Shown one piece after another: positions 9,688 to 62,845 of a stretch of DNA of 64,000 nt. The notes below the pieces were generated by a model that was not told where the DNA came from, ran no database searches, and saw only the letters and a list, made by a program, of their open reading frames with translations. Origin of the DNA: Eledone cirrhosa (taxonomy: Eukaryota); contig OZ024740.1 in NCBI GenBank assembly GCA_964016885.1, positions 387,562,001 through 387,626,000 of the forward strand, written 5' to 3'. How positions within the stretch are numbered: position 1 is the first letter of the stretch; every line of letters starts with the position of its first letter. A program made the translations under genes and the position numbers.

Positions 9688-9988
9688 ATCATAAAACATG
9701 TCTATAGAATCACCAGATAAAATATATACCGTTTCCTCTCCCAATTAGCATAATTAACCATATAAAAAATCAATTAGACCAAGCTATAAGAATAAAGGCT
9801 CCTATGAAGAAATCCCCGTCGTAACCGCCGCGAAGGGGCTGCTTTCGGTTATTTGTCGGAGATTTCTTCATAGGAGCCTTTATTCTTATAGCTTGGTCTA
9901 ATTGATTTTTTATATGGTTAATTATGCTAATTGGGAGAGGAAACGGTATATATTTTATCTGGTGATTCTATAGACATGTTTTATGATA
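9688..9988. repeat. near-perfect inverted repeat (~127-bp arms, ~46-bp spacer) abutting (TA)n
   Basis: 9688-9814 is the reverse complement of 9861-9988. Confidence 0.9.
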
Positions 9989-10246
9989 TATAGCTCGGAT
10001 TATTTAATTTATTAATTCTTCATTGAGCCACAAAGTGACCCGTTGCAAAACACATATATATTTATGACTTTATATATATATATATATATATATATATATA
10101 TATATATATACATATATATATATATATAATATATGTAATACACGGCCACATTAGAGCGTGGACTGTGTGTTTTTTGTCGTGACACCTACATGACCTCATT
10201 TATTTCGGACTGGATGTTGTGGTACCAACATAACTTTATATATATA

Positions 10247-11070
10247 AACGGAAAAAATGAAACGAAATTTCATTTTCCACTCTTAGTACGGCTGTTACTT
10301 AAATATAAGTATGCATACGTACATACATATATGTATACAGACGTACAGTAGTATGTATATATATATATATACATGCACACACATATTTATGTACGTATGG
10401 ATTCACCGAACATTTATTATAATGCTCGGTGTGTTTGTAAACAAACATCCCGTATTAAGCCGTAGTGTCTAGCAACCATCGTTGCTCGTTTGTTCAACAC
10501 TGACAAAGGAACGCTATACTAGTTTCAAGCTTATTAGCTATCGTCAGCAATGAATACCTTCCTGCCAGATGATTGAACGTCTGAAAGTATATACTTTCCT
10601 TATGCATATTAACGGCTGAGTAGCCCAATTTGCATATCGAGTGGGTTAATCGACCGGGTGCACCGAAAACGATAAACGGAAAAAATGAAACGAAATTTCA
10701 TTTCCCACTCTTAGTATGGCTGTTACTTAAATATAAGTATGTATACGTACATACATATATGTATACAGACGTACAGTAGTATGTATATATATATACATAC
10801 ATGCACACATATATATATGTACGTATGGATTCACCGTACTAAGAGTGGGAAATGAAATTTCGTTTCATTTTTTCCGTTTATCGTTTTCGGTGCACCCGGC
10901 CGATTAACCCACTCGATATGCAAATTGGGCTACTCAGCCGTTAATATGCATCAGGAAAGTATATACTTTCAGACGTTCAATCATCTGGCAGGAAGGTATA
11001 CGTTGCTGACGATAGCTAATAAGCTTGAAACTAGTACATCGTTCCTTTGTCAGTGTTGAACAAACGAGCA
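10247..11070. mobile_element. non-coding 428-bp tandem unit with hammerhead plus inverted copy (retrozyme-like or PLE-derived)
   Basis: aaacggaaaaaatgaaacg occurs at 10247 and 10675. About 10836-11070 is the inverse of the unit sequence around 10484-10720. HHRs at 10511-10553 (-) and 11000-11042 (+). Confidence 0.7.
11000..11042 (+). ncRNA. type I hammerhead ribozyme
   Basis: acgttg-CTGACGA-t agc taataa gct t-GAAA-ctag-TA-catcgt (stem I has one mismatch). Confidence 0.75.
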
Positions 11071-11170
11071 TGGCCTCAGCCGGATAGCTGGAACAGGTAA
11101 AAGAGTAATATATATATATATATATATATATATATATAAAATATATATATATATTATATATATATATATA

Positions 11171-12233
11171 TGCATTTGGTTATGTGTATACGTGTGTTTT
11201 GCGTCTGTGTGAGTATGCGGGTTCGTACGTATGTAGGGTGTGTGTATATGTGTACTTTATGTTTTGGTTGACGTACGTCCGCGAACATATGTCTCTTTAC
11301 ATGTGGGTGTGTGTGTGCGCGCGTTGTATACGTATTTATGTGTGTATATTTATATACGTTTATTTAATTATGTATACACGCACACAAACACATGTGTATA
11401 TATATATGTCTTTATTTATTTATTTTTGTGTATTTGGGGTATACGTTCGTATGTGTGCGGTACAGGCGTTGCGTGGGTTCTGTATATGCGTGTGTGTGCT
11501 TTCTTTTCGTTTTTTTTTTGTGTGTGTACGTGCTTGTATTTGCATACCCATGGTGAGTGGTTTCGCGTATGCTTGTGTATGTACGTATATGGATGTGTGT
11601 ATGTATATATTTAATTTCAATTACCTCTGTATTTTATTTACTTAATTCTTAACTCTGAAGCCGAGATTCATTCGGTTTCCTAAATAGAATTTTAGTCTAC
11701 GATTTCAGTTATACCATTTACGTGGTTTTGTCTTTGCGTGTAATTGTTATCAACGTCCACATAATGACCTATTATCTTCGTTTTTTCCGTTCCTTGCCAG
11801 AGAACGTCTCCATGAACCACCTAATAGAATATTAGTCTACGACTTCATTTATACCATAAACGTGGTTTTGTCTTCGCGTGTAATTGTTTTCACTGCACCA
11901 AATAATTGTTTCTACTTTAGGCACAAGGCCAGCAATCAGCCAGTGCATTACTGGTACTTTATTTTATCGACCCCGTAAGGATGAAAGGCAAAGTCAACCT
12001 CGGCGGGATTTGAACTCACTGCACCAAATAATGATGTATTATCTTCGTTTTTTTCCGTTCTTTGCCAGGGAACGTTTGCACGAACCAAAGTATCGTCTTC
12101 CTGTCTTCCTTCGGTTGCAACGTTTTTTGAAATATTTACTTCTGCGTTCACAGATTGACTTTTTTAGTTTCAGAAGATCCCGTTAAGGGTGAAAGCAGCG
12201 ATTCTTTGCTTAAACTTTAATCTGTTATTTTAA
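11171..12233 (+). mobile_element. PLE family B 3' UTR/pLTR copy with hammerhead, interrupted by a SINE
   Basis: Collinear with about 60920-61800. Contains ~125-bp subrepeats. HHR at 12166-12216 (core CAGAAGA). Ends ttaatctgttattttaa followed by (TA)n. Confidence 0.8.
11907..12016 (-). mobile_element. 5'-truncated SINE
   Basis: Reverse complement of the 3' half of the 8843 SINE. TSD cactgcaccaaataat at 11891-11906 and 12017-12032. The empty site is visible in the paralogous copy near 20268. Confidence 0.85.
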
Positions 12234-12320
12234 TATATATATATATATATATATATATATATATATATATATATATATATATATATATATATATATATAT
12301 ATATATATATATATATATAT

Positions 12321-61800: not shown

Positions 61801-61859
61801 ATCTATATCTATATCTATATATATATATATATATATATATATAGATATAGATAGGTAAA

Positions 61860-62290
61860 TATACACGGGTATGTATGATTGTGTATAGAAGATTATATTA
61901 ATAAGAGGAATTCCAACTTTGTCTGATTTACTCGTTTTATTTACAATCCTTTAAAATATATAATGGTATTATAATGAAATAGTATGATAGAATATTAAAT
62001 TCTAAGTGTTAATTGAACAAGTACTTTCATGCTTTCGCAATCTTCAGGTTCATAATATGTGGTGACAGTCGAGTTTGCAATTTTCAATTTTCACAGTTGA
62101 AAATTGCAAACTCAACTGTCACCACATATTATGAACCTGAAGATTGCGAAAGCATGAAAGTACTTGTTCAATTAACACTTAGAATTTAATATTCTATCAT
62201 ACTATTTCATTATAATACCATTATATATTTTAAAGGATTGTAAATAAAACGAGTAAATCAGACAAAGTTGGAATTCCTCTTATTAATATA
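61860..62290. mobile_element. ~195-bp inverted pair of pLTR-like termini, each with a hammerhead
   Basis: 61894-62087 is the inverse of 62097-62290. HHR tgaac-CTGAAGA-t tgc gaaa gca t-GAAA-gtac-TT-gttca at 62132-62170 (+) and 62014-62052 (-). Confidence 0.85.
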
Positions 62291-62449
62291 TATATATATA
62301 TATATACATGCACACACATACATACAAAATACACATACGTACACACAATTACATACACACATACATACATACACACACACACACACACACACATATATAT
62401 ATATATATATATATATATATATACAAAAAGACACTACATGCATACGCAT

Positions 62450-62605
62450 GTCCAGAAATAGCCGTCGAAACGGCTTGAGTTCTGCCGTCGGGGTCTTGAA
62501 CATTTTCCTATGACCCACTCTACTACCCTAAGTATTGAGTACTCTGGAGTCCAGAAATAGCCGTCGAAACGGCTTGAGCTCTGCCGTCGGGATCTTGAAC
62601 ATTTT
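62450..62605 (+). repeat. ~56-bp direct repeat at 99-bp spacing with a half-hammerhead motif
   Basis: gtccagaaatagccgtcGAAAcggc...gccgTCggg occurs at 62450 and 62549. A related sequence lies at about 54680-54780. Confidence 0.6.
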
Positions 62606-62620
62606 CATATATATATATAC

Positions 62621-62845
62621 AGTATAAACAATGTTTCATACACTTAAAATGTATGTGCGACTATTGGTTTCGGGGTCCAGTTATGGCCACCATAGTATAT
62701 TGGAGGAGGCACTCCCATAACTGGACCCCGAAACCAATAGTCGCACATACATGTTAAGTGTATGAAACATTGTTTATACTAAATAAGCTCTCTTGCAACA
62801 AATTGAGCATTGTTCTCCTTGATCTTTCATCTACGGATTCCTTTA
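62621..62845. repeat. inverted pair (~66-bp arms) with one-sided tail, in (TA)n
   Basis: 62621-62687 is the inverse of 62716-62780. The right arm extends a further ~65 bp. Confidence 0.8.

Follow-up and report, generated by a model that had tools for sequence, protein, structure and literature searches.

The window analysed here is a stretch of 64,000 nucleotides from the genome of Eledone cirrhosa (assembly GCA_964016885.1, contig OZ024740.1, positions 387,562,001 to 387,626,000; G000:C1:387562001-387626000 in our labels). It is AT-rich, packed with (TA)n runs and holds many reverse transcriptase (RT) fragments. Our subject is a group of Penelope-like elements (PLEs) in these runs and the origin of their head-to-head insertions. 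The two arms of such an insertion end at two start sites, long and short, which lie 30-100 nt apart with one of each per insertion; the difference is the tail carried by the long arm. The copies were sorted into families A (12321, 52547, 55242), B (15911, 54417), C (28799), D (14927), F (61845, 28321), G (62621), H (9688) and K (43773). In family A, positions are counted from the tail tip (0), upstream positions being negative. The features of these families in the window are given below, with pLTR for pseudo-long terminal repeat, ORF for open reading frame and UTR for untranslated region.

9688..10065: family H hairpin, about 70 nt extra on the right side
12321..14855: family A head-to-head insertion, long and short arm, 3-nt junction microhomology
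12321-13856 (-): long arm of this insertion, tail tip at 12321, extending to about -1550
13854-14855 (+): its short arm, from about -1083, terminating in the TA patch
14927..20023: family D pair matching over 870 bp at 98.9%, with its long end on the right and its short end on the left
14927-about 19054 (holding the nested B copy) and 19055-20023: family D arms, with a tail of about 97 nt on the latter
15911..17823 (-): single-armed family B PLE (long arm), inserted into a TA run within the family D pair
16372-17730 (-): ORF of the nested family B copy, RT remnant and GIY-YIG
28799..32445: family C (probably Neptune-like) pair, 3.5 kb short-end body (-), 113-nt long-end arm (+), tail of ~31 nt
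43773..44240: family K pair, short non-coding unit with small end offset, hammerhead-like core at 44051-44076 (+)
52547..53160: family A insertion with a tail-only long arm, 52547-52615 (-), 0 to -69
52609-53160 (+): its short arm, from about -843, not overlapping the long arm
54417..54655: family B hairpin with a 57-nt tail at its long end (right); the short end is on the left
55242..59633 (+): family A partial tandem with inverted fragment, 5' pLTR, ORF and 3' pLTR
55242-55623 (-): inverted ORF-end fragment of this tandem
55624-55942 (+): its 5' pLTR, whose tail tip continues into the 5' UTR
56021-58429 (+): its ORF, stop-broken, with RT, Asn-rich insert and GIY-YIG-type endonuclease
up to 59633 (+): its 3' pLTR, cut at 59633 by another PLE
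59412 (+; also 14692, 52997, 55642): family A position -258, common upstream arm stop and candidate capped transcription start
59475..59542 (+): family A hammerhead-like motif in the pLTR, core 59481-59487 and 59524-59527 read by eye
after 59535 (+): predicted hammerhead cut of family A (the -134 boundary)
59574..59588 (+): family A short start site, TA-like patch -96 to -82
61845..62290: family F hairpin with its long end on the left and its short end on the right
apex of the 61845 hairpin: at the family F upstream hotspot, short terminal segment repeated
62621..62850: family G hairpin, ~65 nt extra on the right side

All nine inverted pairs in or beside (TA)n that had been listed by an initial, sequence-only reading were recovered by self-comparison, with arm identities of 87-100%. 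Some of their boundaries had to be moved, as the tail of the pair placed at 9688-9988 extends to about 10065 and the pair placed at 43796 really begins near 43773. The family D pair (14927-20023) stands but is interrupted by the nested single-armed family B copy at 15911-17823, and the family C pair (28799-32445) contains an inverted repeat of merely 83 bp. The insertion taken for a palindrome at 52545-53160 is not one, its left arm being tail only (70 nt) and not overlapping the right arm. Inverted matches of at least 70 bp and 85% identity within 6 kb number 20 in the window and none in each of five six-mer block shuffles. The outer ends of the nine pairs lie within 20 nt of a (TA)5+ run in 17 of 18 cases, four ends having been repositioned by hand to tail tips; such runs make up 10% of the window. 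Outward-pointing tails were found in all seven pairs to which an orientation can be assigned (A twice, B, C, D, F and K), either by ORF (A, B, C), by eye from an endonuclease C-terminus in the 27800 copy (F) or by hammerhead-like cores read by eye (D, K). Both endpoints are indeed common to the two family A insertions, whose junctions differ, each with a 3-nt microhomology. Besides the nine, a tenth TA-flanked inverted pair had been overlooked at 42350-43751 (94% over 1,289 bp). It has offset ends and contains partial tandems, and its two ends recur together at other loci.

Family A retains an open 808-residue frame in copy L050. The motifs are RWI (for RWK), DKT (for DKG) and YRDD, with an invariant Y-x-D-D. 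By eye, we recognised a CxCX5C linker, the endonuclease motifs, and CxxC and CxH around a conserved E and N; there is no CCHH. Family A has no match in Pfam, its RT gives a weak match to a retron RT (E 0.009), and no solved PLE structure was found among PDB sequences. Judged from its motifs, family A would match the Hydra clade of endonuclease-containing (EN+) PLEs as described in PMC8557442 (here and below, statements on cited papers refer to the accessible parts of their text). Family B has Pfam matches to GIY-YIG and, weakly, to RVT_1, and family C has RVT_1 and endonuclease motifs. Both show by eye a CX2-5CxxC zinc-finger linker and a CCHH in the endonuclease, and are probably Neptune-like.

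As expected of EN+ PLEs, inverted 5'-truncated copies and one-sided tails are present, and partial tandems with pLTRs occur at 55624-59633 of the window and at L050, L054 and L277. In the tandem copy L050, with a unit of 3,709 nt, the tail tip runs on into the 5' UTR; therefore both start sites are internal to the RNA. The hammerhead-like core of family A was recognised by eye; stems I-II fold with z-scores of -0.6 to -2.0, and no hammerhead stands among the 150 Rfam matches listed. Three insertions (L044, L154, L281) terminate within 1 nt of the predicted cut, without the extra C described below. Two further observations concern the make-up of the elements. Between the family A RT thumb and endonuclease lies an Asn-rich insert (57740-58000), comparable to those of rotifer Penelopes (PMC3846280). 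The short non-coding unit of family K forms tandems (43773-44240, L050), has a hammerhead-like core and resembles a retrozyme or a non-autonomous PLE.

The sequence-only reading had assumed two TA-matching sites, and this is half right: the two are not equivalent, the short site matching TA well and the long site weakly. Most short ends of family A join in TATGTATA (8 bp against a TA primer, with one G-T wobble) or in TATATAT, so that 7-8 bp are available with at most that wobble. The long site of family A matches the target over only 2 nt, and this match has two registers (58 and 22 of 85). The long sites of B and D share 4 nt with the target (L176, L321), and that of family F is a (TA)5 run of about 10 nt. 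The tail of family A measures 82-96 nt.

Copies were collected from the genome, which comprises 3.0 Gb. Genome-wide, family A has 9,439 exact 40-nt tail tips; a shorter tip pattern has 6,244 matches with (TA)7 immediately outside, and one class of short end has 2,418 matches. Family C yielded only three matched copies. For family A, two samples were drawn, one anchored on tips (80 regions around listed tips) and one on short ends (40 regions, six yielding no row, probably through duplicate filtering); they have a few loci in common. The tip-anchored sample contains 90 tips, 5 internal and 85 terminal, with a TA-rich outer flank at 79 of the 85. These terminal tips comprise 62 long+short insertions, 5 tips in three long+long insertions, 15 single-armed insertions and 3 unresolved cases, so that 62 of 65 resolved pairs are long+short; another long+long insertion, with an inexact tip, is found at L068. 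Pairing is the state of most family A insertions but not of all, 15 of 83 being single-armed. Among 44 short ends, 29 have a long partner (one by eye), none a short partner, 13 are single and 2 unresolved. Independent choice of the two sites is rejected (Fisher p 9e-20, the samples sharing a few loci). The same pairing is seen in family B (16 of 16 among 30 loci, with the partner within 1.5 kb), family D (6 of 6), family F (4 of 4) and family H (two pairs); the two ends of H are again paired at L150/L098 and L237. Hand counts over the first 100 matches listed gave 29 tails-out and 1 tails-in neighbours within 7 kb for family A, and 15 and 0 for family D. We also note two possible long+long neighbours in the family B match list, and a family F hairpin of 8.6 kb (L223-L226, G000:C1:21872072-21880680) in which each arm spans the whole unit and enters the upstream pLTR. 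L224/L225 had been considered a mirrored artefact; this was rejected, as they are internal tips of that long+short hairpin.

These rules bear on the idea that a pair represents two independent insertions into one TA run, or recombination between neighbours, later homogenised by conversion. TA runs are indeed hit repeatedly, as by family B nested in D and by the neighbours at 14855/14927. Yet such a process would give long+long, short+short and tails-in arrangements equally often, the haplotypes of independent arms lying side by side are different (at 8 of 10 sites in L073), and most junctions lack a TA remnant. We hold this explanation to be very improbable. The outcomes that the sequence-only reading had named as speaking against it, namely random endpoints, tails-in pairs as common as tails-out and palindromes lacking support, did not appear. 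Its proposal of double priming followed by joining of two cDNA ends gains from the genome-wide pairing rules, but the architecture itself was already published. It had overlooked the apparent origin of both arms from one RNA and their frequent stop at a fixed upstream site with an extra C.

The common origin of the arms is seen in their haplotypes. At 19 variable sites, the two arms of one insertion show 36 mismatches in 1,022 comparisons (3.5%) versus 37% between insertions; the 60 pairs compared include six false pairs spanning separate insertions, which are counted within the 3.5%. The overall divergence of the arms is 1.6% (54 clean pairs). Their lengths are also related. In 62 pairs, the short arm reaches further upstream in 32, both are equal in 22 and the long arm reaches further in 8 (p 2e-4). 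In the 22 pairs whose short arm ends at -258, no long arm goes beyond that position (0 of 22 versus 23 of 40 otherwise, p 2e-6). Equal arm ends also occur away from this hotspot (-1604/-1603, -558/-558, -175/-174), and five long arms terminate at -89 to -94, i.e. at the short site, where 0.6 would be expected. The pattern fits a short-site cDNA that leads and a long-site cDNA that trails on the same RNA. Random later deletion is an unlikely cause because the short arm is favoured 32 to 8.

Two other readings of these lengths were weighed. In one, a cDNA primed at the tip copies itself by folding back, joins the other target end at the TA patch through microhomology and later suffers central deletions, which would make the arms unequal. 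This would account for the absence of short+short insertions, the occasional long+long ones, the shared haplotypes and the 22 equal-ended pairs. A simple fold-back is ruled against because a long cDNA cannot supply sequence past its own end, and among the 40 unequal pairs it is the short arm that extends further in 32, frequently by kilobases. There are also long arms that consist of tail only; the window insertion at 52547 cannot be a long-arm fold-back because its long arm is of this kind and its short arm does not overlap it. Seven junctions are loop-less perfect palindromes, which fold-back also fails to explain, and the extra C found on the short arm's own antisense strand (below) is a further difficulty. 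We consider fold-back distinctly unlikely. In the other reading, a dimer carries two transcripts of one source locus and one is primed per strand. The arms usually overlap in full, which requires strand displacement if there is a single RNA; shared haplotypes fit two RNAs if a single source is active at a time, long+long insertions do occur, and a dimer is predicted for the Poseidon element PAc (PMC11167929). Left unexplained are the pairing of long with short, the absence of long arms past -258 in those 22 pairs, and the equal ends away from the hotspot. Two RNAs therefore appear unlikely to us as the usual source.

About half of the family A arms that reach -258 end there. Genome-wide, at least 3,986 arms have a non-native base directly after -258 versus 4,550 that read through, and this base is C in 2,126 arms. 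A hand count over the first 100 matches listed gave 47 C, 42 A and 11 T as the next base; the family's own sequence predicts 23-31% C (excess p 6e-4 or less). One set of extra-C tallies contains duplicate loci and loci picked for a non-native base, and the 54 clean pairs provide the unbiased count. Where both arms end at -258, the extra C is present on 4 long and 3 short arms. Of the 8 short arms with a partner that ended at another position, 5 also have it, on their own antisense strand. The notion that -258 is a mere palindrome hotspot was dropped, as short arms stop there even if their partner does not. For L1 and SVA, an untemplated G at the 5' end is accepted as the signature of a cap (PMC4859970). 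The commonest junctions are what two cDNA ends would give by annealing through terminal AT, with or without the extra C. One identical junction occurs on three different haplotypes (L124, L125, L152), and therefore the junction forms anew. In 5 of the first 100 matches listed the last 8 nt are repeated, which may reflect slippage at the RNA end. The -258 site lies at a C/A step in what we take to be an initiator-like context. In family B, arm ends also gather loosely ~310-350 nt upstream of the tip, adjoining a presumed YY1-like motif; this may be a dispersed start region.

The upstream stop also concerns the hypothesis that an antisense transcript primes itself, yielding a head-to-head hairpin that is then integrated (PMC3846280). 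It covers the head-to-head geometry and the palindromic junctions, and was put forward for the retention of introns. The stop and the extra C, on the contrary, mark the 5' end of a sense RNA, 40 of 62 pairs have unequal arms, and the template used in vitro is sense RNA (PMC11167929). We give this hypothesis scarcely any weight.

Palindromes beside microsatellites are error-prone, and a fold-back artefact of long-read sequencing or assembly was therefore considered. At both start sites, restriction-site-associated DNA (RAD) reads from other samples of the same species label have loose TA ends. These reads also cross strand-switching joints, namely -31/-258 (97 reads, one start), -94/-224 and -19/-180 (both runs). 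Short-read contigs contain joints too, of which at least 15 were examined, with 36 more; these contigs may derive from the assembled sample. Nine of the 15 joints listed link tail-only arms to -258 or to within 10 nt of it, and one has an extra G between the arms. Because short reads, including Illumina reads of other samples, hold such joints, the head-to-head architecture as a class is not an assembly artefact; the confirmation concerns the class and not the single junctions of the window. The arms are moreover 1.6% divergent, their ends are offset at biologically specific sites and the flanks are not mirrored. We attach practically no credence to an artefact.

Double priming of some kind is, in our judgement, highly likely. 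We regard as probable its more specific form, twin priming in which two fixed internal sites of one capped sense RNA are used and the cDNA ends are subsequently joined. The GIY-YIG endonuclease would presumably cut both strands of (TA)n. The protein would place one target 3' end at the long site, where only 2-4 nt can pair, while the other target 3' end would pair with the TA-like patch (7-8 bp in family A). The short-site cDNA would lead, and the long-site cDNA would trail it, displace it, or stall at or before the patch. Both would run to the 5' end of the RNA, which may be the cap, sometimes the hammerhead cut, or a break. Slippage and untemplated bases could be added there, the cDNA 3' ends would anneal through 0-6 nt, and gaps would be filled in. 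Priming in the 5' pLTR would produce 430-bp hairpins; priming in the downstream pLTR would produce arms of up to a full unit and rebuild partial tandems.

Several points weigh against twin priming on one capped RNA. Two RNAs transcribed at a single source locus, or conversion between the arms, could also account for the shared haplotypes, and microhomology may be behind the pile-up at -94, which falls in AT-rich sequence. The 15 single-armed insertions among 83 and the three long+long ones depart from the pairing rule, and the samples take the first places along contig C1 and are non-random. As regards the cap, the extra C was judged against a crude null. Of the long arms that end at -258 with their partner ending elsewhere, 0 of 7 have C, and 10 of 16 short-arm Cs (in the set with duplicates) are readable as partner sequence via microhomology. 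Because many Cs could be partner-arm sequence, the cap is something we infer, as is the start site at -258. Family F has a sharp hotspot (1,019 arms) at which the next base is mostly G, with C in ~26 of 100; the G may arise by microhomology or slippage. A cap hotspot was sought in family B and not found, the arm ends forming a broad cluster only. No read or contig among those listed bridges the window junction at 52608-52615. Lastly, PMC11167929 found the two strands alike in their start sites, with no homology there.

A broader view can be put forward tentatively, with slightly more doubt than belief. Across clades, twin priming on one capped RNA would be the normal route for (TA)n-targeting PLEs. 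Two RT active sites would sit a tail length apart on one transcript, each primed by one cut strand, so that the tail equals their spacing. The inverted pLTR would be the second first-strand cDNA and the TA patch an evolved catcher of the second strand. At the RNA 5' end the RT would slip back and copy the last 8 nt again, in a relic-like counterpart of telomerase repeat addition.

Other features of the window are as follows. A hairpin (90%) of a frequent short repeat family lies at 10483-11070, with a direct repeat at 10244/10672 and its right end outside TA. Nested inverted repeats outside TA occupy 3128-5484, perhaps a DNA transposon end; Rfam gives histone 3' stem-loop-like matches there, just over the gathering score at 5293-5338 and under it at 3272-3317, and no histone ORF was seen in this region. 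A PIF1-type helicase ORF at 32977-34674 possibly belongs to a Helitron-like element. Non-LTR retrotransposon RT frames are found at 47568-50327 (-) and 20516-23513 (+), the former open over 919 codons with (TA)n at its 5' boundary. Further Hydra-like PLE fragments of other families lie at 59540-60736, 25665-27059 and 7202-7906, and one such fragment breaks into the family A tail from 59634 on.

The layout (head-to-head arms, one-sided tail, (TA)n) is known from print, and we found no printed precedent for the pairing rules. PLE twin priming and PLE cap signatures were not found in the literature searched, which consisted mostly of papers outside subscription; the evidence on mechanism is apparently new. 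The pairing, one-template and run-off rules discriminate among published and unpublished models and give exact predictions in vitro. They imply a retrotransposon able to do without an ordinary second-strand step at its 5' end, and they bear on the RT family closest to telomerase.

In the Hydra clade (Craig et al. 2021, PMC8557442), the one-sided tail and the (TA)n bias were described, and the origin of the tail and the inverted pLTR was named an open question, which twin priming would answer. Family A resembles this clade in its motifs, hammerhead-like motif, (TA)n targets, partial tandems, inverted 5' copy and one-sided tail. It differs in its 3.7 kb unit, Asn-rich insert, RWI for RWK and a tail of 82-96 nt versus 30-40. 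PMC8557442 attributes tail and inversion to endonuclease cleavage properties and, in its accessible part, gives no pairing rule. For PAc, the green anole Poseidon element (Frangieh et al. 2024, PMC11167929), two internal start sites define the tail in vitro, and both strands of an AT-rich target are cut and extended, as here. For PAc, neither a strand preference in start site nor homology is reported, whereas here one long and one short site are used and the short site is TA-complementary. In the accessible text the steps after first priming are unvalidated and inverted products are not discussed. In Adineta vaga Penelope (Arkhipova et al. 2013, PMC3846280), the head-to-head inverted pLTR is likewise the commonest arrangement, with palindromic junctions, an optional tail and Asn-rich inserts, and antisense self-priming was offered as its cause. 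Our data point instead to a sense, capped template.

Miniature inverted-repeat transposable elements (MITEs) and foldback DNA transposons also form thousands of short hairpin loci in TA. The insertions described here differ in ends offset by 30-100 nt, variable inner junctions and arms that are 3' parts of an RT-encoding element; equal terminal inverted repeats with a constant interior were not found. Twin priming would explain thousands of hairpin loci that could be mistaken for MITEs or microRNA genes, and Rfam microRNA matches below threshold were obtained at 54432 and 62051. In L1, twin priming is a minority route with variable sites and non-overlapping segments. Here most insertions would take it, from a fixed site and in the absence of poly(A), with arms that mostly overlap; instead of poly(A) 3'-end priming and non-overlapping parts, we find internal start sites and overlap in most pairs. 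Common to both are a second target strand that primes internally on the same RNA, giving a 5' inversion, and an untemplated G that marks full-length 5' ends (PMC4859970). The sequences give indirect support to the view that both arms would be first-strand cDNA from one RNA, as twin priming of the L1 type (Ostertag and Kazazian 2001) requires; the mechanism would work like L1 twin priming and is not the L1 case.

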